Shown piece by piece: positions 6,022 to 59,004 of a DNA stretch of 59,004 bases. Position 1 is the stretch's first letter, and the number at the start of each line of letters is the position of its first letter. The translations under genes and the position numbers were made by a program. The DNA comes from Thermoleophilia bacterium (GTDB taxonomy: Bacteria > Actinomycetota > Thermoleophilia > BMS3ABIN01): NCBI GenBank assembly GCA_014874265.1, contig JACWAM010000118.1, positions 1 through 59,004 of the forward strand, given 5' to 3'. The notes under the pieces were generated by a model. The model had not been told where the DNA came from and made no database searches. It was given only the letters and a program-made list of their open reading frames with translations.

Positions 6022-6041
6022 ATTCTGGCAGGGAGAGGTTT

Positions 6042-6239
6042 TTGGACGCAATTGAGCTCATCGAGCAGGCAATCGAGAACGAGAGGCTCGCGGCACAGCG
6101 ATACCGCGAAGGCGCCGGGTCGGCGGATGATCCTGAAACCAGATCGATGTTTGAACAGCTGGCCAGATGGGAGCAAGATCACGAGCGCGTTTTACGGGAA
6201 CGGCTGGCAACACTAAAGCTGATTCGCGGCCAGCGCTGA
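6042..6239 (+). CDS. Small ferritin-like/rubrerythrin half-domain protein
   Basis: GGAGAGG RBS and TTG start. AIENE..A..Y...F..LA.WE.DH (E...ExxH diiron half motif). Confidence 0.8.
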   Translation: MDAIELIEQAIENERLAAQRYREGAGSADDPETRSMFEQLARWEQDHERVLRERLATLKLIRGQR

Positions 6240-6256
6240 AAGTTCAGGACTCTCGC

Positions 6257-6460
6257 TCAGCGCTGACGGCCAAAAAGAGCCAGAAAACCAACCGGCGCCA
6301 GCCACAATAAGACCCAAAAACCAACAGTGATGGCAAGAGGAAAGATGGCGCCGCCGCCATCCGAACCGGGGCCAACCGCCTCAAACAAAAACACTCCGGC
6401 ACCTGACAGGCAGATGACAGACCATACGATTATTAGCTGAATTCTGTTTTTTGCTGACAT
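6257..6460 (-). CDS. Small two-TM membrane protein
   Basis: ATG start and two hydrophobic helices. Confidence 0.55.
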   Translation of the reverse strand: MSAKNRIQLIIVWSVICLSGAGVFLFEAVGPGSDGGGAIFPLAITVGFWVLLWLAPVGFLALFGRQR

Positions 6461-6542
6461 GAATTACCTAAGCCCCGTCAATCCCGACTGAAATAAAACA
6501 TCCTGACTCATTGGCCGCGGCTGTTGCGGTCATCCCGCGTTC

Positions 6543-7247
6543 TTAAAAATAGCCCAGATCGCGCAGTTGCGCCATTATCTGCTCTTTTTCCTGGGCTCTG
6601 CCTTCGCGTTCCGGTCCGTCGCCGCGCGGGCGCGAACTCTTGACCGTGCAGGGCTGGCAGCCGAGACTGCGGTAACCCTGATCATATAGGGAGCAATAGG
6701 GAAGGTTATACTTCTTGATGTATGCCCAAATGTCAAGCTCGCTAAAATGAAGAATTGGCTGCACCCGGGTATGCTCCGTCCGGTCCGAGAAATATTCCTC
6801 ATCCTCACGAGCCGGCTGCTCGTCCCAGCGAACGCCCGTGATCAGCGCTTTCCATCCGTTTTTTGCAACCGCCATGTCGATTGCCTCCGCCTTTAGCACC
6901 AAGCAGCATTGCTCATGGTCTTCGGCAATCTTGATTTTTTTAAGCCCTTCGTGATTCGTGGTAATAACCAGAACAAGGTTCCACTCCCGGGCCAGGCGGT
7001 CACGGAACTCGATAACCTCTTTGAATTTAACAGTGGTGTCAAGGTTAAGCACCGGGATGGGGACGTTGCCTGCACCGATGCGCTTTAGCATATGCAAAAC
7101 AGTGAGCGAGTCTTTCCCGCCGGTGAAGGTAGTCGCTATCTTTCCCTGGAAGCGCTCCAGCGCCTGCCTGAGCACCTCGAGGCTTCGCGCTTCTTTCTCT
7201 TCCAGAGCCTGTTCCTGCTCTGGGAGGCCGCCTGCTTTGTCAGTCAT
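6543..7247 (-). CDS. cysH: APS/PAPS reductase family protein (Fe-S type)
   Basis: FTGGKDS, LDT..KF.E, EQCC..LK, ITGVRWDE, GYRSLGCQPCT. The CC plus CxxC motifs indicate the APS-reductase type. Confidence 0.8.
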   Translation of the reverse strand: MTDKAGGLPEQEQALEEKEARSLEVLRQALERFQGKIATTFTGGKDSLTVLHMLKRIGAGNVPIPVLNLDTTVKFKEVIEFRDRLAREWNLVLVITTNHEGLKKIKIAEDHEQCCLVLKAEAIDMAVAKNGWKALITGVRWDEQPAREDEEYFSDRTEHTRVQPILHFSELDIWAYIKKYNLPYCSLYDQGYRSLGCQPCTVKSSRPRGDGPEREGRAQEKEQIMAQLRDLGYF

Positions 7248-11629: not shown

Positions 11630-11727
11630 GCCGGCAAGAATTGAGGCCAAGCTGGCCGAATCTGATTGATACCATAAGGAAATCCGTTTTTCTGAGAGCC
11701 GCACCGCTGCTATAATTTTCTCAACAT

Positions 11728-11774
11728 GGTGATGAAGCTCACCCAAATGCGCCGGCGGCGCTGATGGCTTCTAC
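11728..11774 (+). promoter_or_regulatory. Fluoride riboswitch (crcB motif) #1
   Basis: GGTGATGAAGCTCACC-AAA...GCTGATGGCTTCTAC matches the fluoride aptamer. TATAAT at 11711; directly upstream of crcB. Confidence 0.92.
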
Positions 11775-11797
11775 AGATTTTCTGTAGGAGTTTTTTT
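11768..11797 (+). terminator. Riboswitch-controlled intrinsic terminator
   Basis: CTTCTACAGA-loop-TCTGTAGGAG followed by T7; the stem overlaps the aptamer 3' end. Confidence 0.85.
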
Positions 11798-11842
11798 ATG
11801 CCCGCATCCAGTTTGATGACTAGACGAAGTAGTTGATTTGAT

Positions 11843-12217
11843 ATGGAAAACATTCTGGTAATAGGGACTGGCGGCTTCTTCGGCGCCGTCAGCCGCTACG
11901 CCGTCGCCCTCTGGATCGGCGAGCGCTGGGGGCGCAGCTTCCCACTGGGAACGCTGGTGATCAATGTCAGCGGCAGCTTCCTCATCGGTCTGCTGATGTT
12001 CATTCTCAGCCAGAAGGTGCTGGTCAATCCCCTCTGGCGTTCGCTGCTGGTGATCGGCTTCCTGGGCGCCTACACCACTTTCTCCACCTTCGAGTACGAA
12101 ACAGGTAATCTGTTGACCGATGGCGAACTCCTCTACGCAATGGTAAATGTCGTGGCCAGCGTGCTGGTCGGTTTAATGGCGCTGAAGCTCGGCGAGCTGA
12201 TTGCGAAAATAATATAG
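11843..12217 (+). CDS. crcB: Fluoride efflux channel Fluc/CrcB
   Basis: GG.FGAV.RY, FPLGTL.IN..GSF, GFLGAYTTFSTF.YE. Confidence 0.97.
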   Translation: MENILVIGTGGFFGAVSRYAVALWIGERWGRSFPLGTLVINVSGSFLIGLLMFILSQKVLVNPLWRSLLVIGFLGAYTTFSTFEYETGNLLTDGELLYAMVNVVASVLVGLMALKLGELIAKII

Positions 12218-12224
12218 GAGCAAG

Positions 12225-12566
12225 GTGTTCACGGGTCCCGCGAAAAAACTGACAATTTATGTGGATGAAAGGGACAAATTTCATCATAAGCCGGTGTACG
12301 AGGCTGTGGTCGATATCCTTTACCAGAACCACATCATGGGACTGAGCGTCTTTAGAGGGATCGGCGGCTATGGCTCCAATGGCGTCCTGCACACTGCCAA
12401 GATCCTCGAACTTTCAACCGATCTGCCGGTAAAAGTGGAGGCAATCGATGCCGCGGACAAGATCTACGAAGTGCTGCCGGAGATCGCCGAGGTCGTCGAA
12501 AAGGGTCTCATTGAAGTTTCTGACACAAATGTAATCAAGTGCTGCCGTTCGAAAGAGGATACCTGA
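12225..12566 (+). CDS. DUF190 PII-like protein (CrcB-associated)
   Basis: LTIYVDE.D....PVYE, VFRGIGGYG, LSTDLPVKVE. Confidence 0.9.
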   Translation: MFTGPAKKLTIYVDERDKFHHKPVYEAVVDILYQNHIMGLSVFRGIGGYGSNGVLHTAKILELSTDLPVKVEAIDAADKIYEVLPEIAEVVEKGLIEVSDTNVIKCCRSKEDT

Positions 12567-12649
12567 CCGGGAGATAGAATCAAATTACAGCTGATCCCGG
12601 GCAGGGCTGTTTTGCCGGCCTGTTTTCAGGGAAAAAACCAATAAAAAGC

Positions 12650-12699
12650 GGCGATGAAGCTCGCCCTTAAGCGTCCTCACGGGGACTAATGGCTTCTAC
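12650..12699 (+). promoter_or_regulatory. Fluoride riboswitch (crcB motif) #2
   Basis: GGCGATGAAGCTCGCC-TTAA-GC-GTCC-TCACG-GGGAC-TAATGGCTTCTAC. Confidence 0.9.
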
Positions 12700-12728
12700 A
12701 GACCGGCAGATCTGTGGGAGCTATTTTT
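12692..12728 (+). terminator. Riboswitch terminator hairpin that also contains the RBS
   Basis: GCTTCTACAGA...TCTGTGGGAGC-TATTTTT lies directly before ATG 12729. Confidence 0.75.
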
Positions 12729-14492
12729 ATGGAAAAACTGGATACATACTCATCGACCAGACAGCGCCTTGAAGAGATTCTGGCCCACCTGGCGGGAAGC
12801 GTCAGGGAAGAATCTTCCCGTCAGGCACTGGCGGATGTCAGCAGCCAACTGGCTGACAACCGCTTTTCGCTGGTCGTGGCCGGGCAGTTCAAGCGGGGCA
12901 AGACTACCTTTATCAACGCACTTCTGGGCAGCAACCTGCTGCCGGTCGCCATCATTCCGGTGACCTCGATCATCACCGTCGTTGGTTATGGCGAAGAGCT
13001 GAAGATCGAGCTGTTTCTTAAAGACGGCTACCACCAGGACATTGACCGGGATCAGCTGCCGCAGTACATCACGGAAAAACAGAACCCGGACAACATGAAG
13101 CAGGTCGACCGGGTCGAGATCCTCTATCCGTCACCATATCTCAAAAATCATGTTCAGCTGATCGACACCCCCGGCGTCGCTTCCATCCACAGCCACAATA
13201 CGGAGACAACATACGGTTTCCTGCCCAAGGCCGACGCCGCGGTCTTCATGGTCAGCGTCGACCCGCCCCTGACCGAGGCCGAGCTCCACTTCCTCGCGGA
13301 CCTGAAGGAGTACGCCGCCCGCATCTTCTTTGTCCAGAACAAGATCGATACCGTGGATGAAAAGGACCGGGCCGAGTCGCTGGCCTTCACCCGCAGCGTC
13401 ATTGGGGAACGGCTGGGATTTGACAATGCCACGATCTATCCGCTTTCGGCAAAAAACGCTCTGGAGGGCAAGCTGTCGGGCGATCCGGAGATGGTTACCG
13501 GCAGCGGCCTGCCCGTGTTCGAGGAAATGCTGGACCGGTTCCTGATGAATGAAAAGGGCAGTGTAATCCTGGCTTCTGCCGCCGGCAAAACGCAGAACAT
13601 CATCGCTCAGGAGACCTTTTCATCACGCCTGATGCAACAATCGCTTCAGGAACCGCTAAGTAACCTGGAAGAAAAGATCGCCCTCTTCCAGGAGTCCCTC
13701 AAGGAAATCAGCCTGGAACGATCCGACAGCAAGCTTTTAGTCAGGCAGGAGGCCAACCGCCTGGTCAATGAAATTCTTCTGCCGGATCTGGAAGCGTTGA
13801 AGGAGCGGGAAACGCGGCAGCTTCAGACAGAGCTTGACATTATGGCAGAAACAGCAGGCGATCTGGGCAATCGCGATTTTGCCGAGGCGCTTGATGAACT
13901 GCTCAGGGAACGGGTCCATGACATCTTCAACCACTGGCGCCTCCACGAACAGGAGCAGCTTAACGGCAGCCTGGCCCGGATGCTCAGGCGGCTGGTGGAG
14001 CGGACCAACCGCATCATCGAGCGTCTGGCGGCGGTCTCTTCAGAGCTTTTCGGCACTGAGATGAGCGGCTTCACCGTCGACGAGTCCCTGGCGGGGGAAT
14101 CTTCTTTCAGCTTCAAGCTTGATGAGGATGTGAAGATCGCCCTGGAAAGCATGACGGAAGCAGCAGCGCTGATGCTGCCGAAGCGGCTGGCCCACCGCCG
14201 CATCCTGGGCGAGGCGCGGGAGCGCGCCGCCAAGCAGATCGACCGTCACTGCGGCCGGATGCGCCATGACCTCACCGGCAGGATTGAGGTGACGGTGGCG
14301 GATTTTAGCCGGCGGCTGGACGGCGCTGTCGACGCCGCCATCCGCGGCATCGACGAGGCGCTTATGGCAGGCCAAGAGGCACGCACGAAAAGCGCGGCCG
14401 AGCTGGAAAGCTTTGAAATCGAACTGGCCCGGCGGCTGAGCGCTCTGGAGGAGGCGTCGGCGGAAATCAGGCAGCTGGTGCGGGAACTTTAA
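12729..14492 (+). CDS. Bacterial dynamin-like GTPase
   Basis: G1 GQFKRGKTT, G2 P.T, G3 DTPG, G4 NKID, followed by a long helical stalk. Confidence 0.9.
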   Translation: MEKLDTYSSTRQRLEEILAHLAGSVREESSRQALADVSSQLADNRFSLVVAGQFKRGKTTFINALLGSNLLPVAIIPVTSIITVVGYGEELKIELFLKDGYHQDIDRDQLPQYITEKQNPDNMKQVDRVEILYPSPYLKNHVQLIDTPGVASIHSHNTETTYGFLPKADAAVFMVSVDPPLTEAELHFLADLKEYAARIFFVQNKIDTVDEKDRAESLAFTRSVIGERLGFDNATIYPLSAKNALEGKLSGDPEMVTGSGLPVFEEMLDRFLMNEKGSVILASAAGKTQNIIAQETFSSRLMQQSLQEPLSNLEEKIALFQESLKEISLERSDSKLLVRQEANRLVNEILLPDLEALKERETRQLQTELDIMAETAGDLGNRDFAEALDELLRERVHDIFNHWRLHEQEQLNGSLARMLRRLVERTNRIIERLAAVSSELFGTEMSGFTVDESLAGESSFSFKLDEDVKIALESMTEAAALMLPKRLAHRRILGEARERAAKQIDRHCGRMRHDLTGRIEVTVADFSRRLDGAVDAAIRGIDEALMAGQEARTKSAAELESFEIELARRLSALEEASAEIRQLVREL

Positions 14493-14546
14493 CGGCATCC
14501 CCATGCGGCTTTGACCCGCATGGCGGCAACGCCGGACAGGAGCCTT

Positions 14547-15497
14547 GTGGCAGACAGAATCGCATTTAACATGATACAGGTACTGGTTGTCATGGCGTTC
14601 GCGCCGCTGGCCTCCGGCGTGCTCTCCCGCCTCAAGGAATTGGTTCAGTCCAAACGCGGTCCGAGCATTTTTCAGCCCTATCGCGATCTGTGGAAACTAT
14701 TTCACAAGGATGAGATTGTTTCCGAAGACAGTTCCTGGATCTTCCTGTTTACGCCTTACATGATTTTTATCACACCCATTTTCGTGACGCTGCTGATCCC
14801 GGTGCTGACTAATTATCCGCTCTTCTTTGCTTTCATGGGCGACATGATCGGCGGCGGGTTCGTACTGGCACTGGGCGGATTCTTCGCCACCCTGGCAGCG
14901 ATTGACACAGCCAATCCCTACGGCCCCATGGGCGCCAGCCGCACGCGGATGGTGGGCTTCCTGGCCGAGCCGGTGTTCATGATCGTTTTCTTCACCGTCT
15001 CATTTGTCGCCGGCTCCACCATTCCCTATATCGTCCAGGAAAAATGGGTGACCCCGGTGGCGAATTTCTTCATGCCGTCGCACGTGCTGCTGATGCTGGC
15101 ATTCCTGATGCTGATCCTGGCCGAAGGCGGCCGCATCCCGGTGGATAATCCCACCGGCCATTTTGAGTTGGCGATGATTGACGAATCTAAATCGCTCGAA
15201 TACTCAGGCCGGGGGTTCGCGCTGGTGAAGTGGGGCGGCTTCATGAAAATGTTCGTGCTGATGTCCATCTTCCTCAACGTCCTCGTGACACCCTGGGGGC
15301 TGGCTGCTGAAGTGTCGGCCGGCGACATTCTGTTGTCCATTCCGCAAGTGCTGCTGAAGATCTTCATCTTTTTGTTACTTCTGGTTGTCATCGAGTCTTC
15401 GCTCTCCAAGCTGCGGCTGTTTCGCATCAGCGAATTTCTGGGAGCCGCGTTCATTATCTGCGTAGCGGCGATGATCGCGCAGGTTTTTACATATTGA
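14547..15497 (+). CDS. hyfC: Ehr/hydrogenase-4 membrane subunit (HyfC/NuoH-like)
   Basis: AGGAG RBS and GTG start. GPSIFQPYRDLWKLFHK, GASR, RIPVDNP.GHFELAMI.E. Confidence 0.9.
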   Translation: MADRIAFNMIQVLVVMAFAPLASGVLSRLKELVQSKRGPSIFQPYRDLWKLFHKDEIVSEDSSWIFLFTPYMIFITPIFVTLLIPVLTNYPLFFAFMGDMIGGGFVLALGGFFATLAAIDTANPYGPMGASRTRMVGFLAEPVFMIVFFTVSFVAGSTIPYIVQEKWVTPVANFFMPSHVLLMLAFLMLILAEGGRIPVDNPTGHFELAMIDESKSLEYSGRGFALVKWGGFMKMFVLMSIFLNVLVTPWGLAAEVSAGDILLSIPQVLLKIFIFLLLLVVIESSLSKLRLFRISEFLGAAFIICVAAMIAQVFTY

Positions 15498-15515
15498 CCG
15501 ATTATTAATGGAACC

Positions 15516-16220
15516 ATGAACTCGACCAATCAGCTACTGGATAACCTCAATGCCCTGGCAGCAGCGTTGTTTCTGCTGACTGCTTTTGGCATGGTGGCGA
15601 TGCGCCAGGCGCGGGGCGTTCTCAACCTGTTCATCGCTCAGTCCCTGCTGCTGTCCGCCTCCGCTCTGTTTTTGGGTCTGCGTTTCCACTCGGACCATCT
15701 TTACGGCGTTGCTCTGGTGGATATCATCATCAAGCCGGTAATCATTCCCTGGCTGCTGAGGCGGACAGCGCCGGCAGAGATCTATACGCGCCGGGAGGTC
15801 AACCAGGCGCTGAATATCCCCACCGCCTTGCTGGCCGCGCTGGCGCTGGCAATCCTCGCCTACTTTCTGGCACAGCCCATTCTTGGCGCAGTGGCGCCTC
15901 AGTTCCGCAACCCCAACGTTCCGATCGGCATCGCTGGTTTGCTGCTGGGGGCATTCACGATCACGGTCCGGCGAGAAGCCGTGCCGCTGCTGGTTGGCCT
16001 CCTGGCCATGGAAAACGGCGCCTTCCTGGCGGGCATCGCCATCGCCCGCGACCTGCCGCTGATCGTCGAACTGGCCGTGGCCTCGGATGGTCTTATTGTC
16101 GTCTTCATCATGGGGGTACTCACCCGTGCCGTCTATCGGCAGATTGGTTCGACGGCGGTCGGCGAGCTGGCGAGCCTGAAAGAGGCTCCGGAAACGGCGG
16201 GAGAGGAGAGGACCGCATGA
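15516..16220 (+). CDS. hyfE: Ehr/hydrogenase-4 membrane subunit (HyfE-like)
   Basis: QSLLL, IK..IIP.LL, GLLAMENG, C-terminal LASLKE. Confidence 0.9.
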   Translation: MNSTNQLLDNLNALAAALFLLTAFGMVAMRQARGVLNLFIAQSLLLSASALFLGLRFHSDHLYGVALVDIIIKPVIIPWLLRRTAPAEIYTRREVNQALNIPTALLAALALAILAYFLAQPILGAVAPQFRNPNVPIGIAGLLLGAFTITVRREAVPLLVGLLAMENGAFLAGIAIARDLPLIVELAVASDGLIVVFIMGVLTRAVYRQIGSTAVGELASLKEAPETAGEERTA

Positions 16221-17710
16221 GCGTCGTCCTCCTTCTGCTGCTCCCCGTGATTGCCGCGGCCCTGGTGTTGCTTCCCTTCAGGAAATTATGGGCGCCAGCC
16301 GTAACCATTGCTTCCTCGCTGGTGATCCTGGTCCTGGCAGCGCGGATCGCCTGGCAGGCTTCACAAGGGGAATCCGTGACCTCGGTTCTGGGAACCGGCT
16401 TTTTCAAATGGATTAATGTAGACAGCCTCAGCGCTCTGATCCTGCTGCTCATCGCCTTTGTCAGCACCACGGCGGCCATTTACTCCGCCGGTTATATGGC
16501 GCATGGAGATTACTCATCCTGGAGGCTGCGCATCTACTATGTCAACTTCAACGCGTTCGTCTTCTCCATGCTTGCCATTCCCGTTCTTTCCGAACCGACG
16601 CTGGTCTGGATCGCCGTCGCCCTGACAACCCTGACGTCGGCGCTGATCGTCTCTTTTGAAAACACACGCGACGCGCTGGAAGCGGCATGGAAGTACGTGG
16701 TGCTGTCACTCATGGGAGCCGGCATGGCGCTATTCGGTTTCCTGCTGCTGTTCGCCGCCTTTGAGGCCTCCGGCAGCACGGCGGCGTTTACCTGGAATGA
16801 TCTGGGCAACGCCGCGCCCGGGATGCCGCCGGTCCTGCTCATGACCGCTTTCCTTTTCATCCTCATTGGCCTTGGCACTAAAACCGGTCTGGTGCCGATG
16901 CACGCGTGGCTGCCGGATGCTCACAGCCAGGCGCCCTCGCCGGTCTGCGCCCTGCTTTCCGGGATCGAGACGTCGGTCATCCTTTACGTGATCATGCGCC
17001 TGTTTCCAATCATGCGGGCGGTGCCGGGGTCCCATGCCGCGACATGGGCAATCGTGCTGGGCCTGATATCTGTGGGTACCGCCGCGTTCCTGCTCTTGCA
17101 GGTAAACGATTACAAGCGCATGTTTGCCTTTTCCACGGTGGAGCACATGGGCATCATCCTGACGGCGATCGGGCTGGGCGCCAGTAACGCCAATTACGGG
17201 GCGCTTGAGCAGGTCGTCAGCCACAGCGTCACCAAGTCATTTTGCTTTTTTGCCGCCGGCGCCGTTTTGCTGGCGGTGGAAACGCGGCAGATCGCCTCGG
17301 TGCGCGGGCTCATCCGCCGCTCGCCCGCGGCCGGGGCGGCCCTCGTTTTTGGCGGCCTGGCCATAGCCGGAGCGCCGCCCCTGGCCGTCTTCCTCAGCGA
17401 ATTCTCCATCATGAAGGCCGGCCTGGCAGAGGGCAGCTACGCAGTCATCGGCCTGCTTTCGTTTTTTATCCTGATCGCGTTTTTTGGCGTCATGATGCAG
17501 ATCAACCGGATGGTCTTCAGCGCCGGGAATACTGAATCAGCGGGCGTGGCTTCGGGAGTTTCTTCCCGCCCTGGCAAGAAATTTCATCTGCCCTTTAGCT
17601 GCCGGCTGGCGCTTGCCATTTCCGGCGCACCTGTCATTTTACTTGGCTTTTATATTCCCCCGCCCATGCAGGACCTGCTGGCTCACGCGACCGCTATTTT
17701 GACAAAATGA
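16217..17710 (+). CDS. hyfF: Ehr/hydrogenase-4 antiporter-like subunit (HyfF-like)
   Basis: LEAAWKY, GTKTGLVPMHAWLPDAHSQAPSPV.ALLSG, KRMFAFSTVEHMG. Confidence 0.9.
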   Translation: MSVVLLLLLPVIAAALVLLPFRKLWAPAVTIASSLVILVLAARIAWQASQGESVTSVLGTGFFKWINVDSLSALILLLIAFVSTTAAIYSAGYMAHGDYSSWRLRIYYVNFNAFVFSMLAIPVLSEPTLVWIAVALTTLTSALIVSFENTRDALEAAWKYVVLSLMGAGMALFGFLLLFAAFEASGSTAAFTWNDLGNAAPGMPPVLLMTAFLFILIGLGTKTGLVPMHAWLPDAHSQAPSPVCALLSGIETSVILYVIMRLFPIMRAVPGSHAATWAIVLGLISVGTAAFLLLQVNDYKRMFAFSTVEHMGIILTAIGLGASNANYGALEQVVSHSVTKSFCFFAAGAVLLAVETRQIASVRGLIRRSPAAGAALVFGGLAIAGAPPLAVFLSEFSIMKAGLAEGSYAVIGLLSFFILIAFFGVMMQINRMVFSAGNTESAGVASGVSSRPGKKFHLPFSCRLALAISGAPVILLGFYIPPPMQDLLAHATAILTK

Positions 17711-19278
17711 TCAATTTAACCGATCAGATTGAAGAACGCTGGGGAGGCAAGGCCCAGGCGGGTTTTAACGTTATCAATTCCGCCTGGGAAGTAACCTGCT
17801 CTCAAACGGCGCTGGTGGAGATATGCGAATGGATTTTTGCTGATCTCGATTTTAGTTTTGCCACTCTGGTTGTCGAGGAAGAAGCGGATGAGTGGCGCCT
17901 GCGTTACATCTTTTATGGGGGGAGTAACGGTTGGGTCCACGTGCTGGCCAGCTCGCCTCGTTCAGAACAGACCTTTCCCAGTATCGTCGGTCCCGTGCAC
18001 GCCGCCGACTGGCATGAGCGTGAAGCCGAGGACATGTTCGGCCTCAACTTTGAGGGCCATCCTCGCCTGGGAGATTTTATCCTCCACGATGACGCCTGGC
18101 AGGAGGGCGTCGAGCCGATGCGCCATCAGTTTGACCCGCAGATGGCACTGCTTTACCGCAAGCCGGTTGAGGACTGGCGGCCACGGCGCATCGTCCAGGA
18201 GCCCGGCGCCTTTATCATGCCCGTCGGACCAAAATATTCCGGAGTCGCCGAGTCGGCTCAGTTCCTGCTCGAGACCGTCGGCGAAGACGTCATTCGGTTC
18301 TCGCCGCGGCTGTATTACAAGTGGCGCGCGGTAGAGAAGCTTGCTGAGGGAAAGACAGCAGATGAAGTCCTGCTGCTTGCCGAGCGCTTTGCGGCCACGA
18401 CGGCGTTTGCCCATGGCCTCGCCTTCTGCCAGGCAGTCGAGAAAATCTGCGGCGCAAAGGTCCCGCAACGGGCCAGGGCGCTGCGCGTGTTTTTGGCGGA
18501 GCTGGAGCGGCTGCGGCAGCACACCGGCCAGGTTCAGGCGATCTGCGAATCGACGGCGCTGGTGGTCGCGGACAGCCAGAGCGGCATCCTGGAGGAAGAC
18601 CTGCTCCGCATCAGTGGCGAGCTGGCCGGCCACCGTTACCTCTTCGGCCTGCTGGCGCCGGGCGGTCTGACTACCGACCTTTCGGATCAGGCATGTCAGC
18701 ATGCGCTTGAGCGTTCGCGAGAGGCGCTGGCCGGCCTGGATGAGCTGGAAACGCAGCTGCGCGTCTCCAGCAGCTTTCTTGACCGCCTGGAAGAGGTTGG
18801 TTTCGTGCCGACCGGCACCGCCCTGGATTATGGCCTTCTAGGGCCGGTGGCGCGCGCGGCCGCGGTCACCGACGACCTGCGCCGCAAGCAGCCCTACCTG
18901 GGATATGACCTGTTTCAGTTCGAGGTGCCCAGCGAGCGGGAGGGCGACGGTTACGCGCGGCTGCGGGTGCTGTTCTCAGAATGCCGGCAATCCGTGCTTA
19001 TCATGGGACAGGCGCTGGCAGCGCTCGCGGAGGGCAGGGTGCGCGAACCGGTCCGGTTTCATGCAGGCGCCGCGCTGGGTTATGTAGAGGCGCCGCGCGG
19101 CGGCGCTTTCCACTGGGTGCGACTGGACGAAGGGGGAAGGGTGCTTCGCTACCATATCACTTCGCCTTCTTTTGTCAACTGGCACGGTTTTCACCTCGCC
19201 GTGGAAAATTTTGCGTTTCAGGACTTTCCCATCATGCTCGCTTCTTTCTACCTTTCCGTCGCGGAGAATGACAGGTGA
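17707..19278 (+). CDS. hyfG: Ehr large subunit (NuoC+NuoD/HyfG-like) lacking NiFe-binding cysteines
   Basis: WHERE..DMFG..FEGHP, ELERL, EAPRG. The L1 site reads ERFAATTAFAH and the L2 site SFYLSVAENDR. Confidence 0.88.
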   Translation: MINLTDQIEERWGGKAQAGFNVINSAWEVTCSQTALVEICEWIFADLDFSFATLVVEEEADEWRLRYIFYGGSNGWVHVLASSPRSEQTFPSIVGPVHAADWHEREAEDMFGLNFEGHPRLGDFILHDDAWQEGVEPMRHQFDPQMALLYRKPVEDWRPRRIVQEPGAFIMPVGPKYSGVAESAQFLLETVGEDVIRFSPRLYYKWRAVEKLAEGKTADEVLLLAERFAATTAFAHGLAFCQAVEKICGAKVPQRARALRVFLAELERLRQHTGQVQAICESTALVVADSQSGILEEDLLRISGELAGHRYLFGLLAPGGLTTDLSDQACQHALERSREALAGLDELETQLRVSSSFLDRLEEVGFVPTGTALDYGLLGPVARAAAVTDDLRRKQPYLGYDLFQFEVPSEREGDGYARLRVLFSECRQSVLIMGQALAALAEGRVREPVRFHAGAALGYVEAPRGGAFHWVRLDEGGRVLRYHITSPSFVNWHGFHLAVENFAFQDFPIMLASFYLSVAENDR

Positions 19279-19282
19279 CCGC

Positions 19283-20044
19283 ATGAGCCGCTGGGTTATA
19301 AAAGGGATTCGCACAGGAATAAAAACCACCACATACCCGCGCGGCACTGAGAGTGCACCCGGCACGACCCCTGGCCTCCCCGGCAGCGGCGCGCCTGATA
19401 GCGAGGCAGCACAAGCACTAGTGGAAATTTGCCCCACGGGTGTATTCACGGTCGCCGGCGGCGAACTGGTGGCGGACGTGCGCGGCTGTATTCATTGCCT
19501 GCGATGCGTCCGCCTGACCCATCAGCCGGCGAACTGGCAAGCCGGTTCTTTTGAGTGGGCAGCGGAAACAGTGCCGGTAAATAAACTTCCGGGCGCATTT
19601 AAAAAATCCGTACATATCTGCGTCGTTGACACCGGCGACTGCGGCGCCTGCTTAAACGAAGTAAGGCAGCTCAACAATCCCTACTACAACATGCATCGCC
19701 TGGGACTCTTCATCACGCCCACGCCGCGCCACGCCGACATCCTGCTGATAGTGGGCCCGGGCACCGACCACATGCGGTACGCCCTCCAGAAAATCTACGC
19801 CGCCATGCCCTCCCCAAAGCGCGTGGTGGCTGCCGGCGCCTGCGCGCTTTCAGGCGGAGTTTTTGCCGGGAGCTTTACCTGCAGTGAGGGTATTGGTGAA
19901 ACAATGCCGGTGGACGTGGAAATTCCCGGATGTCCGCCGCCGCCTCTGGCAATTTTGCACGGCTTGCTGGTGGCGGCCGGGCGCAGACCGCCAGCCGGCA
20001 GCCCCGCTACCACGGCAAAGACGGAAACGCCCGGAACGGCATGA
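19283..20044 (+). CDS. hyfI: Ehr small subunit (NuoB/HyfI-like) with N-terminal ferredoxin-like segment
   Basis: CPTG..CIHCLRC, then DCGAC.NE, PRHADIL, GAC, PGCPP.P. Confidence 0.88.
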   Translation: MSRWVIKGIRTGIKTTTYPRGTESAPGTTPGLPGSGAPDSEAAQALVEICPTGVFTVAGGELVADVRGCIHCLRCVRLTHQPANWQAGSFEWAAETVPVNKLPGAFKKSVHICVVDTGDCGACLNEVRQLNNPYYNMHRLGLFITPTPRHADILLIVGPGTDHMRYALQKIYAAMPSPKRVVAAGACALSGGVFAGSFTCSEGIGETMPVDVEIPGCPPPPLAILHGLLVAAGRRPPAGSPATTAKTETPGTA

Positions 20045-22236
20045 TGGACGCCTTGATGCTCATCATCATTTTTCTGGGGCTTTGCGGCGCCGGCGTCTTG
20101 CTGTCCCTCCTGGCGCCGCCGGCGAGGCAGGGAAGTGTGCTAGCCTGGACGGGGTGCCCGGCGGCCCTGGCGCTGGTCCTGGCGGGAGGGGCAGCGCTGC
20201 TGGCGGGAGATACCTTTAGTCAGGCGCTCTGGTCGCTGCCGGGATTGTCAACCCTGACTCTCAGCCTCGATCCGGTGTCGGCGCCGTTTCTGGTCGTGAC
20301 CGGCCTGGTGCTGTTCCCGGCTTCAATCTTTGCCGCCAGCGAGCTAAACCGCGAACCGGGACGGGGCGGCTCTGCCAAACGTTTGCTTCCTTTCTCGTTT
20401 TCTTATCACAAGCGCGCCTTCACCGTGATGCTGCTGGGGCTGTACGCCGCCATTGGCCTGATCTTCGTGGCCGGAGACGTTCTCTTGTTTATGCTCGCCT
20501 GGGAAGTCATGTCAATTCTGGCGTATCTGCTGATCGTATCCTTAAGCAGCGGGGAAAAAGACGGGGCGGGCGCCGGCTATCTTTTGCTGGCCATGGGTGA
20601 AGCGGGGACCCTGGCCGCAGTTGTTGGTTTTCTGCTCATGGCCGCCGGCGCCGGGTCGCTTGATTTCGGCGCGATCCATGCCGCGGCTCCAGGTTTTAGC
20701 AACGGACTGAAGTGGTCGGTCTTTCTGCTCTCGTTTTTTGGTTTTGGCGTAAAAGCAGGTTTGCTGCCGGTTAATTTCTGGTTGCCCAGAGCTTATGTTG
20801 CCGCATCCCGCGCTTTTGTCCCGGTGCTGGCCGGGGCCACTCTCAACCTGGGCCTGTACGGGATTATGCGGGTAAACGCCGGCCTGATGCCGGCGACCAG
20901 CGCCGGGCCGGGCCTGATCGCGCTCGTCATCGGCGCGCTCACAGCCCTGATTGGCATCCTTTATGCGACCATAGACAAGGATCTCAAGCTCGTGCTGGCG
21001 CATAGCTCAATTGAAAATGCCGGCATTGTTATCGCTGGTTTTGGCGCGGGGATGGTGTTTGTGGCCACCTCACACCCGGTGCCGGCCGCGATTGCTTTTA
21101 TGGCGTCAATCTACCATCTGATCAATCATTCGCTTTACAAGACGCTTTTGTTTTTCGGGGCCGGCGTGGTGGAGACCGGGACCGGCATCCGCAATATCAA
21201 CAAGCTTGGCGGCCTCATCAAGTGGATGCCATGGACGGCGGCCGCCTTCCTTGCCGGGGCCCTGGCGATCTCGGCCCTGCCGCCACTTAACGGCTTTGTC
21301 AGCGAGTGGCTCACGCTGCAGACTTTGCTGCGCGCCGCCGATTTGTCCTCGGCTGCAGAAAAGCTGTCTTTCGCGCTGGCCGGGGCCGGCCTGGCGCTGA
21401 CGGCGGCGCTGGCCGTTACCTGCTTTGTCAGAACCTTCGCCATGAGCTTCCTGGGCATGCGGCGTACAAGAGAAAATCAGCCTGTCCAGGAGGCTAAAAT
21501 GGGCGCGCTGGCGCCAATGTTTATTCTCGCCGTTCTCTGCCTCGGCCTGGGCGTTTTGCCCACGTATGTGATTTCCGCGCTCAGTCCGGCAACGACCCAG
21601 CTGGCCGGCGCCAGCGCCGCTGATGCCCTGGTGCCGCCCTTCTTCTCATCCAATCCGGAGCATAGTCAGCTGCCGGCCGGTTTTGTTCAGGACTTTCATA
21701 ATCTGGGAGCCCAAGTGGGGCAAAGCCTCTTGCCCGGCCGCGGCCTGGTGGTGCTTCACCGCGGTGGTGAGGACAACCCGGTGGTTTTTGCCATGTCAAC
21801 ATCTTACATGGCAGTTGTTTTAATCATCCTGCTGGGCGCGACTTTCGTTGTTACCCGGGTCTGGTTAACTCGCAGGCGGAGGCTGCTTAGGCGAAAGCGC
21901 TGGGATGGGGGGATGCGCCGGCTGCTGCCGGAGATGACCTACACGGCGACCGGCTTCTCCAACCCGGTGCGAGTGATTTTCGACGCCGTCTTCAGGCCCA
22001 CAACCGTGGAGGACACCCGCGAGACGGTTAGCAGGCATTTCCGCACCGCCATACTGCGCGAGCGTGATCGAACCTATCTCGCTGATAAGCTTGTTTTTCG
22101 CCCGGCAAGAGCGGCGCTGTTAAAAGTCGCGCGCGCACTGGCATATCTACACCAGGGCAAGCTCAACGCTTACGCGGCTTACGCGCTTTTTGCGCTCCTG
22201 GCCGTGCTCGTCGTCTATTTAATCCAGACATCATGA
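20041..22236 (+). CDS. hyfB: Ehr/hydrogenase-4 antiporter-like subunit (HyfB/NuoL-like)
   Basis: AWEVMS, GFGVKAG..P...WLP, LAHSSIEN.G, LPPLNGFVSEW, MTYTATGFSNP. Confidence 0.9.
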   Translation: MMDALMLIIIFLGLCGAGVLLSLLAPPARQGSVLAWTGCPAALALVLAGGAALLAGDTFSQALWSLPGLSTLTLSLDPVSAPFLVVTGLVLFPASIFAASELNREPGRGGSAKRLLPFSFSYHKRAFTVMLLGLYAAIGLIFVAGDVLLFMLAWEVMSILAYLLIVSLSSGEKDGAGAGYLLLAMGEAGTLAAVVGFLLMAAGAGSLDFGAIHAAAPGFSNGLKWSVFLLSFFGFGVKAGLLPVNFWLPRAYVAASRAFVPVLAGATLNLGLYGIMRVNAGLMPATSAGPGLIALVIGALTALIGILYATIDKDLKLVLAHSSIENAGIVIAGFGAGMVFVATSHPVPAAIAFMASIYHLINHSLYKTLLFFGAGVVETGTGIRNINKLGGLIKWMPWTAAAFLAGALAISALPPLNGFVSEWLTLQTLLRAADLSSAAEKLSFALAGAGLALTAALAVTCFVRTFAMSFLGMRRTRENQPVQEAKMGALAPMFILAVLCLGLGVLPTYVISALSPATTQLAGASAADALVPPFFSSNPEHSQLPAGFVQDFHNLGAQVGQSLLPGRGLVVLHRGGEDNPVVFAMSTSYMAVVLIILLGATFVVTRVWLTRRRRLLRRKRWDGGMRRLLPEMTYTATGFSNPVRVIFDAVFRPTTVEDTRETVSRHFRTAILRERDRTYLADKLVFRPARAALLKVARALAYLHQGKLNAYAAYALFALLAVLVVYLIQTS

Positions 22237-22254
22237 AGGCCATCTGCGACTCAA

Positions 22255-22488
22255 ATGAATTCTTCCGGACATGAAAATTTGCTGGCGTTGTTTCTTGTCT
22301 TAGGCCTGGTATTCGGTGTTCTTGCGGGATTGATGGCTTTTCTGATTACTTATAACGAGTACAGTCACCATTATCATGAAAGCAGAGCGCCGCTCTCTGC
22401 GTCGTTACGTACGGCCCTTTTCGCATTTGCGGTCATGTTCGCCGTGACTATCATCGCGGGTTATGTTTTAGCCAGCTACATTCTTTAG
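22255..22488 (+). CDS. Small two-TM protein at the end of the Ehr operon
   Basis: Starts 18 nt after hyfB. Two hydrophobic helices flank ITYNEYSHHY. Confidence 0.7.
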   Translation: MNSSGHENLLALFLVLGLVFGVLAGLMAFLITYNEYSHHYHESRAPLSASLRTALFAFAVMFAVTIIAGYVLASYIL

Positions 22489-22628
22489 ACTGGTCATGCA
22501 GGTAACTCAGGTAAACTGTCGTTCTTGAGGAGCGCAGCGACGAAGAATCTGATTTTTAAACCGGATATCCTTCGGCTTCGCCTCAGGATGACGATCAGGG
22601 CAGCACCTGAGCCAATTGTATGATCAGT
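22489..22628. mobile_element. MITE copy B (IS1595-like TIRs)
   Basis: Left end ACTGGTCATGCAGGTAACTCAGGT, right end ACCTGAGCCAATTGTATGATCAGT. Flanks TTCTTTAG / TTCTTAGT form a degenerate TSD. Internal GTCGTT..GATGAC hairpin. Confidence 0.8.
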
Positions 22629-22717
22629 TTCTTAGTTAGGGTAGGCCGGCGTGGGAAAGCCGGGACTGCGTTGACAGATTTACAAACCGCAAACCACGGG
22701 AAATTCAAGGAGTCATA

Positions 22718-23416
22718 ATGCGCACTCTGGTTTTATCCGACATCCACGCCAATATTGACGCCCTTGAAGCCATTGATGAACCCTGCGACGCGGTCCTGTT
22801 TCTGGGGGACGTGGTTGACTACGGCCCCGAACCGGCCGCCTGCATCAACTGGCTGCGGGAGCGCGGCGCCAAACGCGTGCGCGGCAACCACGATAACGCC
22901 GTGGCCTTCCGGATGGACTGCGGCTGCGGTGAAGCTTACAGGCATCTTTCGGTGCAAACGCGAGAGTACATGTGGCAAGTGCTGGATCAGGAAAGGCTCG
23001 ACTGGCTGGGGGCGGCGCCCATCAGCCTGGAGCTGGAAAGCGGCGGACACCGCGTCCTTGCCGTCCACGCCGCGCCCAGCGATAACCTGTTCAGGTATGT
23101 AACTCCGGAGGCCAGCGACGCCGATCTGGCCGCCGAAGCAGCGCTGACGGATGCGGACATCATCCTCATGGGCCATACCCACCGTCCTTTTATCCGCGAA
23201 GCCGGCGGCAAACTGCTGGTCAATGTCGGCAGCGTTGGCCAGCCCCGGGACGGCATTCCCATGGCTAGTTACGCCGTCATCGAGGGCGGCCAGGTGGAGC
23301 TAAACCAGGCGCAGTACGATGTCGAAGCTGCCGTGGCCCGGCTCAGGCGCCTGCCCCTTGAGGAGAGGGCGATCAACGAACTCGCCTATATCCTTAGGAA
23401 CGCCGGCATGCCCTGA
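22718..23416 (+). CDS. Metallophosphoesterase (YfcE/calcineurin-like)
   Basis: SDIHAN, GD.VDYG, GNHD, GHTH, NVGSVGQPRDG. Confidence 0.92.
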   Translation: MRTLVLSDIHANIDALEAIDEPCDAVLFLGDVVDYGPEPAACINWLRERGAKRVRGNHDNAVAFRMDCGCGEAYRHLSVQTREYMWQVLDQERLDWLGAAPISLELESGGHRVLAVHAAPSDNLFRYVTPEASDADLAAEAALTDADIILMGHTHRPFIREAGGKLLVNVGSVGQPRDGIPMASYAVIEGGQVELNQAQYDVEAAVARLRRLPLEERAINELAYILRNAGMP

Positions 23417-23552
23417 AGCGCATATTGGATTTAGGATATTAATATTGATGGAAAAAGACGCCCGAATAATTAAAATCTGCCAACCCTTGCAGATTGAAAA
23501 TTGGTAAATCCCCTTGTAGCAATAAGTGCCGTGCCCGTGTTTTAATCCATGG

Positions 23553-24797
23553 ATGGCCGAGAATAAGGAAACGGGGCTACCTGATGAGGCCCTCCCCGAT
23601 GCGGTAGCAGCGATGGTGGGCGAGAAGTCTCCCGTTCCCGGCATCAGCCGCAATGTCTTCATCCTGGGCATCACCAGCTTCTTTACCGATCTTTCGACCG
23701 AGGTTGTCTATCCACTGGTGCCACTGTTTCTGACCTCCGTTCTGGGGGCGCCTTTTTTTGTGGTTGGCTTGATCGAGGGCATCGCCGAAAGCACGGCCAG
23801 CCTGCTTAAGATCTTTTCCGGCTGGATATCTGACCGCATGCGCCGGCGGCTGCCGCTGACGGTGATCGGGTACAGCGTTTCCGGATTTGCCAAGCCTCTC
23901 CTCGCGCTAGCCACCGTATGGCCGGTTGTGCTTGTGCTCCGCTTTGGCGACCGCTTGGGAAAGGGGATCCGCAACCCGCCGCGCGACGCCCTCATCGCCG
24001 ATTCTTCCGAACCATTGAGGCGCGGCCGCGTCTTCGGCTTTCACCGGGCGATGGATACAGCCGGCGCCTCTTTAGGCGCGATCGCCGCACTGGCGGCGCT
24101 GGCGATCCTGGGCGAGCGGTACCGGATCATCTTCCTTCTTTCCGCGGTACCGGCGGTGCTGGGTGTGGTCAGCCTCTTTTTCATCCGTGAGCGCGTCCAC
24201 CCGCACCGGCAGACGCTGCCGCCCCGGCTCTCACTATCACAACTCGACCATCGCTTCAAAATATTCCTGCTGGCCAGCGCTATTTTTGCCCTGGGAAACT
24301 CCAGCGACGCTTTCCTGATTTTACGAGCAAAAAACCTGGGGCTCTCGGCGCTTGGAGCGGTGATGGCTTACGTGATTTACAACCTTGTTTACGGTTCCCT
24401 GTCGATGCCGGCGGGTTCGCTCTCCGACCGGATCGGCCGCCGGCTAGTGATCGCTGGCGGATTTGTCATCTTTTCATTGGTTTACGCCGGTTTTGCCCTG
24501 GCGGCGGGAGCCCTTTTTGTCTGGCCGCTGTTTGCTGTTTACGGCATCTACATGGCAATGACTGAGGGAGTCGGCAAGGCATTTGCCGCCGATATGGCGC
24601 CGGCCGGCGTCCGCGGCACCGCTTTGGGAGCTTATCAGACCGTGACCGGAGCCCTGACTTTTTTCTCCAGCCTGATCGCCGGGATCCTTTGGGATACGAT
24701 CGGGCCGTTTGCTCCCTTCCTTTTCGGGGCCGCCGCCGCGATCGTGGCGGCAGGCGTGCTCGTAAACGCTACACGGGTCCGCCCGTCAGCCTCCTGA
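23553..24797 (+). CDS. MFS transporter
   Basis: About 12 TM helices, G.ISDR.RRR, DRLGKGIR..PRDALIADS, GNSSDAFL. Confidence 0.92.
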   Translation: MAENKETGLPDEALPDAVAAMVGEKSPVPGISRNVFILGITSFFTDLSTEVVYPLVPLFLTSVLGAPFFVVGLIEGIAESTASLLKIFSGWISDRMRRRLPLTVIGYSVSGFAKPLLALATVWPVVLVLRFGDRLGKGIRNPPRDALIADSSEPLRRGRVFGFHRAMDTAGASLGAIAALAALAILGERYRIIFLLSAVPAVLGVVSLFFIRERVHPHRQTLPPRLSLSQLDHRFKIFLLASAIFALGNSSDAFLILRAKNLGLSALGAVMAYVIYNLVYGSLSMPAGSLSDRIGRRLVIAGGFVIFSLVYAGFALAAGALFVWPLFAVYGIYMAMTEGVGKAFAADMAPAGVRGTALGAYQTVTGALTFFSSLIAGILWDTIGPFAPFLFGAAAAIVAAGVLVNATRVRPSAS

Positions 24798-58959: not shown

Positions 58960-59004
58960 GGGCGTATAGCTCAGTTGGTTAGAGCGCATCTCTGATAAGG
59001 ATGA
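58960..59004 (+). tRNA. tRNA-Ile(GAT), truncated by the window end
   Basis: GGGCGTATAGCTCAGTTGGTTAGAGCG-CATCT-CTGATAA-GGATG. Confidence 0.92.

Follow-up and report, generated by a model that had tools for sequence, protein, structure and literature searches.

A 59,004-nucleotide stretch of the genome of a Thermoleophilia bacterium (contig JACWAM010000118.1 of assembly GCA_014874265.1; hereafter, the window) carries two fluoride riboswitches, the first preceding genes for the Fluc fluoride channel CrcB and a DUF190 protein and the second preceding a dynamin-like GTPase gene and six genes for a complex I-like membrane complex of the Ehr type. The Ehr clade to which this complex belongs is almost always linked to a fluoride riboswitch, as a clade-wide rule: a same-strand match at or above the model cutoff lies upstream of the Ehr genes in 68 of 69 testable loci, drawn from the best 80 of 275 relatives. 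On balance, we favor the reading that the locus is a fluoride-stress island of two riboswitch-gated units, in which Ehr would act as a redox-driven ion pump that offsets the acid load brought in by hydrogen fluoride (HF) and F−. An earlier, sequence-only reading of the window had proposed a two-tier fluoride locus of this kind; its regulatory side is sound, and the function it assigned is plausible as an inference from sequence. The window's genome (G000; genomes, contigs, and loci are given G, C, and L numbers below) comprises 2,015,490 bases in 126 contigs and is 97% complete.

A covariance-model scan of the window and of the whole assembly with Rfam model RF01734 (gathering score, used as the cutoff, 34 bits) returned two matches, both spanning model positions 1 to 64 on the forward strand, where the other parts of the locus lie as well. 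Aptamer 1 occupies positions 11719..11780 (39.8 bits, E = 1.4e-7) and aptamer 2 positions 12641..12705 (43.0 bits, E = 1.3e-8), and they are the only RF01734 matches in the assembly. The second element, taken for a fluoride aptamer from sequence alone in the earlier reading, is thus recognized by the Rfam model above the cutoff, and each of the two complete aptamers has its own terminator, as had been claimed. That of switch 1 (11766..11799) is an intrinsic terminator consisting of a hairpin at 11766-11792 (−14.2 kcal/mol, z −5.7) followed by U7, and it was also picked up by a pattern-based terminator scan. The expression platform of switch 2 (12688..12728) is a 15-bp hairpin at 12688-12725 (−20.8 kcal/mol, z −5.5) followed by U5, which abuts the start codon of the dynamin gene (ATG at 12729). 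Because the Shine-Dalgarno sequence of that gene, GGGAG (12716-12720), sits in the 3′ arm of this hairpin and is followed by U5 and the start codon, the hairpin could both terminate transcription and block translation initiation. The 3′ pseudoknot strand of both aptamers, GGCUUCUAC, is common to each downstream hairpin. Riboswitches of this class adopt the aptamer fold preferentially when fluoride binds, and expression of the genes behind them is thereby switched on; such ON-switch logic fits both leaders, in which the aptamers would compete with the terminator and Shine-Dalgarno hairpins. The aptamer pseudoknot, in which the P1 loop pairs with the 3′ tail, is preserved by covariation (GAAGC/GCUUC here versus GGAGU/ACUCC and GGCAU/AUGCC in other phyla), and P1 itself is GGCG/CGCC or GGUG/CACC. 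Similarly, the switch 2 platform is kept in eight relatives with compensatory stem changes (CUACAG/CUGUGG versus CUGCAG/CUGCGG or CUGCAGG), and in 11 related loci a counterpart of aptamer 2 immediately precedes the dynamin gene.

Gene content is as the sequence-only reading described it, with matches to Pfam families throughout both units. Behind switch 1 stand crcB (11843..12217, 124 amino acids [aa]; Pfam CRCB, 98.5 bits against a cutoff of 32.9), a simple hydropathy scan of whose product shows part only of the four transmembrane helices, and the DUF190 gene (12225..12566, 113 aa; Pfam DUF190, 111.6 bits). Behind switch 2, the gene for a dynamin-like GTPase of the BDLP/IniA class (12729..14492, 587 aa; Pfam Dynamin_N, 95.6 bits against a cutoff of 27) is followed, 18 to 27 bases past its stop codon, by that for a NuoH/HyfC-like membrane subunit (14511..15497; Pfam NADHdh, 112.9 bits), which starts at TTG 14511 or ATG 14520. 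Next come genes for a HyfE-like membrane subunit (15516..16220; NCBIfam "hydrogenase 4 membrane subunit," 85.9 bits, below the cutoff of 136, and a weak Oxidored_q2 match), an antiporter-like HyfF/NuoN-like subunit (16217..17710; Pfam Proton_antipo_M, 152.7 bits), the large subunit, a fused NuoC and NuoD/HyfG-like protein (17707..19278; Pfam Complex1_30kDa and 49kDa, and alignment to HycE, 7z0s_E), the small subunit, which joins a one-cluster NuoI/HyfH-like N terminus to a NuoB/HyfI-like domain (19283..20044; Pfam Oxidored_q6, and alignment to HycG and MbhJ), and a second antiporter-like subunit, HyfB/NuoL-like and 731 aa long (20041..22236; Pfam Proton_antipo_M, 142.3 bits; NCBIfam "hydrogenase 4 subunit B," 467 bits, below the cutoff of 667). 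None of the Ehr subunits is named here from NCBIfam, because every match fell below its curated cutoff; the nearest names were hydrogenase-4 subunits B, E, and F, NuoH, NuoD, and NuoB. Genes of the second unit are closely packed, overlapping by as much as 4 bases and separated by about 27 bases at most. Start codons were corrected to ATG 12729 for the dynamin gene, to ATG 19283 for the small subunit, five bases past the large-subunit stop, and to ATG 20041 for the HyfB-like subunit, within an ATGA overlap.

Of 8,000 sequences scored in a protein search with the large subunit, 2,452 were homologues at E ≤ 1e-20, at least 120 of them at 66 to 74% identity, with annotations such as "formate hydrogenlyase subunit 5," "Ni,Fe-hydrogenase III large subunit," and "NADH-quinone oxidoreductase subunit C." Taking one genome per GTDB species yielded 275 relatives, of which the best 80 loci (60 to 74% identity) were kept; these were selected by large-subunit similarity only, and their genomes are related to one another rather than independent samples. 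Locus counts refer to 79 of the 80, one locus from an unpublished genome being left out. The clade so defined (large subunits 60 to 74% identical) spans at least nine phylum-level groups, with sources among Verrucomicrobiota, Gamma- and Betaproteobacteria, Acidobacteriota, Nitrospirota, Planctomycetota, Desulfobacterota-type lineages, Parachlamydiaceae, and "Candidatus Aquilonibacter," together with two "Actinomycetes bacterium" metagenome-assembled genomes that are congeners of G000. Bog, palsa, or peat origin is frequent among the genome records. In tblastn maps the Ehr genes follow the order H-K-F-CD-IB-B in every locus, and all six are present in 69 of 79; order by best tblastn match was consistent in 72, the remaining seven being taken to be matches confused among HyfB-like paralogues, of which many clade loci hold one or two extra copies. 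The NuoH/HyfC-like subunit is 73 to 89% identical across loci of other phyla. Spurious antisense clusters, produced by length-based choice of open reading frames in GC-rich loci, were disregarded.

An nhmmer profile built from 18 family-level aptamers gave 17 matches in 13 of the 80 loci and was too family specific, so we turned to whole-genome Infernal scans, in which 50 of 50 and 26 of 28 Ehr-clade genomes had one RF01734 match or more. Matches were assigned to loci through contig coordinates and a sequence check (the pseudoknot rule), which verified 118 of 168 mapped matches; seven more were accepted by eye (one in L087). A locus was considered testable when its first Ehr gene was present with at least 150 bases upstream (69 of 79), the other 10 being cut by contig ends. 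In the 68 testable loci with a riboswitch upstream, the distance to Ehr is at most 450 nucleotides (nt) in 52, 451 to 1,600 nt in 14, and about 1.9 kb in 2. Between riboswitch and Ehr in the group of 14 lie crcB and DUF190 genes (nine loci), a DUF190 gene alone (four), or nothing detected (one); the two loci at 1.9 kb are those of the G000 congeners, with a dynamin gene in between. The 69th testable locus has a subthreshold match of 31.5 bits at the expected position. Since genomes hold 0 to 16 riboswitches among thousands of genes, this pattern did not arise by chance. The comparison across genomes thus extends the linkage beyond G000 and turns a single-locus case into a clade-wide rule. Among control genomes, those with a fluoride riboswitch did not include E. 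coli, whose Hyc and Hyf both contain NiFe. The Ehr loci lie in "fluoride islands" with several riboswitches each and up to 16 per genome. Recurrent neighbors in the 79 loci are enolase (20 loci), MutS-domain-V proteins (17), dynamins (16), metallophosphoesterases (7), and Usp (4), as well as AAA_16 ATPases and MFS proteins.

We asked whether the two switches of the window act one after the other. The sequence-only reading had seen no clear promoter before switch 2 and had suggested that both switches might act in series on one transcript. Under such control, switch 2 would have no promoter of its own, and dynamin and Ehr would be expressed only from transcripts that had passed both fluoride checkpoints, which would sharpen the response or raise its threshold. 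A putative promoter is visible just upstream of switch 1, where a TATAAT −10-like box read from the sequence (11711..11716) went unlisted in the sigma-70 scan because no −35 match accompanies it. Before switch 2 the scan found no sigma-70-type site, and G000 has GC-rich sequence where relatives have a −10 box; furthermore, what pattern scan and folding gave after DUF190 is a weak hairpin that resembles a terminator but is not convincing as one, and the tandem order switch-crcB-DUF190-switch-dynamin recurs in G004, G012, G015, and G020. However, the second-type switch stands by itself in G001, G002, and G003, behind an unrelated gene and with no crcB unit upstream, and G001 has this one fluoride riboswitch only in its whole genome, so that in these genomes the switch must have its own promoter. 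A −10-like box precedes it in relatives (TATAAT in G004, G012, and G015; TATATT in G001 to G003), and the sole candidate in G000, a weak TAGAAT at 12575..12580 that was read from the sequence, matches what we take to be the loose actinobacterial −10 pattern. In other phyla, moreover, a riboswitch lies directly before Ehr. Switch 2 is an independent unit in relatives, and we regard serial control in G000, which is unproven, as rather doubtful.

The identity of the complex rests on what its large subunit has lost. In alignment with E. coli HycE (7z0s_E, E = 4.5e-50), AATT occupies the position of the HycE CGIC motif, and the C terminus (...YLSVAENDR) has no Cys where the C-terminal Cys pair, canonically of the form DPCxxC, would be expected. 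All four NiFe cysteines are missing from the large subunit, which makes the complex an Ehr and not a hydrogenase; it had been called Ni-less from the window, and the same holds for the clade, in which no large subunit of 79 keeps a C-terminal Cys or both cysteines of the N-terminal CxxC. The replacement motif at the NiFe site is ERFAATTAFAHG in 65 of the 79. One Cys, the first of the N-terminal NiFe motif, is kept in three large subunits (L106, L109, and L114; RFCxTS, residues aligned to 226-237) that are among the most distant members, and we take it as a trace of hydrogenase descent; it suggests that the metal site may have been lost stepwise. As to partners, Pfam detected no formate dehydrogenase, HycB/HyfA-type, or NuoEFG gene in the locus, and none recurs in the 79 neighborhoods. 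G000 does encode a true NiFe-hydrogenase large subunit on another contig (C55:46100-47569; Pfam NiFeSe_Hases, 487 bits), with HypD nearby (C55:39153-40178). Its gene has one in-frame TGA, which could be a selenocysteine codon or the mark of a broken gene. We had considered the absence of NiFe maturation genes as support for a nonhydrogenase function, an argument that HypD and the true hydrogenase on that contig make uninformative.

Much of the iron-sulfur (Fe-S) apparatus, on the other hand, is kept. Alignment of the small subunit to HycG and MbhJ places NuoB-type ligands at DCGAC, GAC, and GCPP, and what is left of a NuoI/HyfH-type ferredoxin, absent from the list of the sequence-only reading, makes up its first ~100 residues; this remnant has four Cys and no more (CP...CxxCxxC), which suffices for a single cluster. 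Among 70 clade members, the NuoI-like Cys50, Cys69, and Cys75 are invariant and Cys72 is found in 66, while the NuoB-like Cys120 and Cys123 are invariant and Cys187 is found in 69. Cys200, near the fourth NuoB-type position, occurs in 54 of the 70 small subunits. At the fourth position itself, the congeners have PGNPP where G000 has PGCPP, and the Cys of G000 looks like either a reversion or a retained ancestral state. The membrane subunits each contain 8 to 11 charged residues that are invariant in the clade and lie in hydrophobic surroundings, with nine in the HyfF/NuoN-like subunit. Hydrophobic segments at 579-611 and 706-731 of the HyfB-like subunit would leave room for a NuoL-type lateral helix.

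Comparison of 24 genomes of the window's family shows what stands in the same slot where Ehr is missing. Directly after the dynamin gene, the six Ehr genes are found in G000, G001, and G004, and a Na_H_Exchanger protein of 383 to 419 aa is encoded in G003, G012, G015, G020, and G023. An Ehr-clade large subunit occurs in G000, G001, and G004 only, and no exchanger of this type was found in those three. As no genome among those compared has both, Ehr and the Na+/H+ exchanger are mutually exclusive in one regulated slot. In G006, an exchanger gene lies ~5 kb downstream of a distant dynamin homologue, and the G015 unit runs on into genes for enolase, a classic member of the fluoride regulon, and a PAP2 protein. 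In the congener G002, the exchanger after the dynamin gene (L024, G002:C16:40780-41921) is interrupted by several stops and is an apparent pseudogene. A third variant of the slot is seen in L029 (G010, genus g6; 5009-6592), where the riboswitch-controlled dynamin gene is followed by one for a PMT_2 glycosyltransferase-like membrane protein. The role in ion and pH homeostasis that had been suggested for the complex gains indirect support from the exchanger in its place in sister genomes, and the physiology itself is a matter of inference.

The dynamin-like GTPase is the conserved, coregulated partner in this slot. Its closest solved relatives by sequence are Nostoc BDLP (2j68, 1.9e-23) and Mycobacterium smegmatis IniA (6j72, 7e-18), followed by the Campylobacter jejuni dynamin-like protein pair. 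The G1, G3, and G4 motifs are intact (GQFKRGKT at 52, DTPG at 146, and NKID at 204), and the Pfam match to the dynamin helical domain (20.5 bits) is below its cutoff of 28.3. An AlphaFold (AF2) model from a 16-sequence alignment has a mean predicted local distance difference test score of 81.6 and combines a GTPase domain with long helices (241-586), within which the loop at 442-470 is of low confidence; Foldseek returned BDLP (2.1e-23) and IniA (1.0e-22) as top full-length matches, at less than 20% identity. The sequence-only reading had named it a membrane-remodeling GTPase, and homology to BDLP and IniA speaks for this, but a hydropathy scan detected no hydrophobic segment outside the GTPase core that could serve as a paddle. 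By homology, the protein may maintain or repair the membrane under stress (PMC6715688, PMC12998192); its role is the least certain of the locus.

Linkage of dynamin genes to the riboswitch is conserved within the family. Across 41 genomes of the window's class, 18 have a dynamin homologue, and RF01734 matched in 12 of 17 loci scanned, directly upstream of the gene in 11 and ~600 nt upstream in one with a distant homologue; the five loci without RF01734 hold weak or truncated dynamin matches. Dynamin-family genes also recur behind fluoride riboswitches in other phyla and join the list of fluoride-regulated genes. We counted 80 Dynamin_N genes in 41 of 77 Ehr-clade genomes, fractions biased by the selection of these genomes for Ehr. 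The nearest same-strand upstream riboswitch, measured from the GTPase domain, lies within 700 nt for 16 genes, at 701 to 2,500 nt for 26, at 2.5 to 6 kb for 12, and farther for 6; the other 20 have none on the same strand and contig and are mostly low-scoring dynamins, probably of other subfamilies. In Verrucomicrobiota and Acidobacteriota, the order is riboswitch, small AAA_16/STAND-like P-loop ATPase (140 to 242 aa), and Dynamin_N protein, as in L036 (18237-21158), L041 (17264-20288), L047 (16876-19810), and L113 (7892-10814).

How might these parts work together? In the mechanism that we favor, each leader would fold as a terminator when fluoride is absent, and the hairpin of unit 2 would also hide the ribosome-binding site. 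With Mg-fluoride bound, the aptamer pseudoknot would keep the shared GGCUUC strand, and transcription and translation would go on. Unit 1 would then supply the Fluc channel CrcB and DUF190 and unit 2 the BDLP/IniA-type dynamin and the six-subunit, complex I-like Ehr complex. HF would diffuse in and Fluc would release F−, leaving one proton inside per cycle, which would acidify the cytoplasm and drain the proton-motive force. Ehr, as an ATP-independent, redox-driven H+ or Na+ pump, would re-export the proton and so restore cytoplasmic pH and membrane potential, a job that the Na+/H+ exchanger at the same place would do in sister species. Judged from its sequence, Ehr retains an Fe-S relay, a NuoH-like subunit, and two antiporter-like subunits, and we favor redox-driven pumping because that relay is kept. 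A wider claim, which we put forward tentatively and would not call probable, is that the whole Ehr clade might be a dedicated fluoride-defense pump of hydrogenase origin, ATP independent and Fe-S driven, that expels the proton of the Fluc cycle, with the dynamin subfamily as a third arm of resistance.

Several observations weigh against redox-driven pumping in fluoride defense. The fourth NuoB-type Cys (PGCPP, residue 217) is present in G000 only, 1 of 70 small subunits, and is replaced elsewhere by N, Q, H, or S, so the NuoB-type cluster may be atypical in the clade. The positions of the Thermus thermophilus Nqo4 quinone ligands, which we take to be His38 and Tyr87, correspond to Ala181 and Ala230 here and to T/A and A across the clade. 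No redox partner, either electron donor or acceptor, recurs across the 79 locus neighborhoods. The dynamin, as noted, has no evident paddle, and the linkage count comes from the best 80 of 275 relatives, from genomes akin to one another, with seven matches accepted by eye.

Some of these points, together with the alternation with the exchanger at one position after the dynamin gene, would suit a redox-independent Mrp-like cation/proton antiporter, a direct substitute for the single-gene Na+/H+ exchanger in which the Fe-S domains are structural remnants. Its two antiporter-like subunits with invariant buried charges, the lack of a donor or acceptor module in the locus or recurrent in neighborhoods, and the loss of the fourth NuoB-type Cys in 69 of 70 members all fit such an antiporter. 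We nevertheless consider it unlikely, since seven Fe-S cysteines are retained in 66 to 70 of 70 members from many phyla, the NiFe-site replacement is nearly invariant (ERFAATTAFAHG in 65 of 79), which points to a pocket conserved for catalysis or sensing, and Mrp antiporters are not known to have a NuoB/NuoD-like arm. Less probable still is that Ehr, as its database name "formate hydrogenlyase" implies, disposes of or redistributes reducing equivalents to an unknown acceptor when fluoride blocks enolase and phosphoryl transfer: the conserved Fe-S relay, enolase genes in 20 of 79 neighborhoods, and a review whose passages on the formate hydrogenlyase link read it as a shift to fermentative metabolism (PMC11139923) agree with this, but no formate dehydrogenase, HycB/HyfA-type, or NuoEFG-type gene lies in the locus or recurs nearby, no H2 can be made where the NiFe site is absent, and the exchanger swap points to ions.

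How far the island extends downstream depends on three further genes. The first (22255..22488) encodes a 77-aa protein with two hydrophobic segments and no Pfam or NCBIfam match, which the sequence-only reading had listed with the genes behind switch 2 as a small transmembrane protein. Although codirectional, it does not belong to the conserved subunits of Ehr: its gene in G001 and G002 lies between metallophosphoesterase and MFS genes, away from Ehr, and among the 80 Ehr loci the protein was detected in L035 only, which is G001's own contig. It is followed by genes for a metallophosphoesterase (22718-23416) and an MFS transporter (23526-24797), both assigned by Pfam. As no convincing terminator was found between the 77-aa and phosphoesterase genes (22489-22717), and homologous phosphoesterases stand directly after a riboswitch in L036, L057, L061, and L072, from other phyla, the fluoride island may reach 24797, with these two genes as a possible downstream extension. 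The genes flanking the fluoride locus are unrelated housekeeping genes, and the G+C profile has no sharp island boundary. At its far end (58960-59004), the window holds the 5′ part of a tRNA gene, cut off by the window end (Rfam tRNA, 32.9 bits).

Part of this picture has precedents. Weinberg 2010 already placed the crcB motif upstream of "genes encoding formate hydrogen lyase" (PMC2864571). A 2024 review restates the link, citing Baker 2012, ranks Na+/H+ antiporters as the second most common class linked to fluoride riboswitches, and describes how HF, accumulating as a weak acid, brings down pH and proton-motive force (PMC11139923). Two papers define Ehr complexes as group 4 hydrogenase homologues without NiFe cysteines (PMC6349859, PMC10284858), possibly partnered with formate dehydrogenase (PMC6349859), and their function is described there as unknown (PMC10284858). 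In the literature searched, we found no paper joining the fluoride riboswitch and dynamin, and, among titles, none linking the riboswitch to Ehr, hydrogenase-related, or hyf; the supplements of Baker 2012 and Weinberg 2010 may list dynamin or Hyf-like genes. New here, as far as that search reaches, are the linkage of one NiFe-less Ehr clade to the riboswitch in nearly all testable loci, the exchanger swap, and the dynamins behind riboswitches. Ehr is widespread, is kin to complex I and membrane-bound hydrogenases, and has no function assigned in recent papers, so the locus hints at the purpose of an orphan enzyme family. Riboswitch linkage and exchanger alternation together make for a concrete, experimentally testable hypothesis, with NaF as the inducer, the exchanger as a comparison protein, and fluoride tolerance, cytoplasmic pH, and membrane potential at low pH as the expected phenotypes. 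If the wider claim made above is true, an orphan branch of the complex I family would acquire its first physiological role and dynamins would be a previously unrecognized arm of fluoride resistance. A label is also corrected, as the "formate hydrogen lyase" of the fluoride regulon, where it belongs to this clade, cannot make hydrogen. The set of genes under fluoride control also gains dynamin-like GTPases, whose frequent companion in other phyla is a small P-loop ATPase.

Compared with known systems, the locus shares with the fluoride riboswitch regulon crcB in the window and, in relatives, the Na+/H+ exchanger, enolase, MutS-domain-V, and Usp genes; it differs in that the "formate hydrogen lyase" is one NiFe-less Ehr clade and that a dynamin-like GTPase leads the unit. 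Tandem riboswitches likewise place two aptamers of one class on one strand, here 920 bases apart, but in the window two genes intervene, each aptamer has its own terminator, and the second is autonomous in relatives. The dynamin resembles Nostoc BDLP, IniA, and Bacillus subtilis DynA in its GTPase domain and long helical bundle; unlike those bacterial dynamin-like proteins, it is controlled by a fluoride riboswitch, is encoded by a single gene rather than a pair, and shows no evident hydrophobic paddle, with the low-confidence loop at 442-470 in its helical domain instead; its identity to the solved proteins is below 20%. With group 4 [NiFe]-hydrogenases such as E. coli Hyf and Hyc, the complex has in common subunits like HyfB, C, E, F, G, and I, and its best PDB match is the formate hydrogenlyase 7z0s, yet it has neither the NiFe Cys pairs nor a formate dehydrogenase or HycB/HyfA input. 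To complex I and Mrp it is similar in its NuoH-, NuoK/J-, NuoN-, and NuoL-like subunits with conserved buried charges, and to complex I also in its NuoB/C/D-like arm; Mrp antiporters are not known to have a peripheral arm, and complex I differs in having a NuoEFG input module and in the aligned quinone-ligand positions, which are not His and Tyr here. Finally, it belongs with the Ehr complexes, as a group 4 homologue with antiporter-like subunits and no NiFe ligands, and is set apart from those described by having no formate dehydrogenase partner in the locus, by the one-cluster HyfH-like ferredoxin fused to its small subunit, and by its tie to the fluoride riboswitch.

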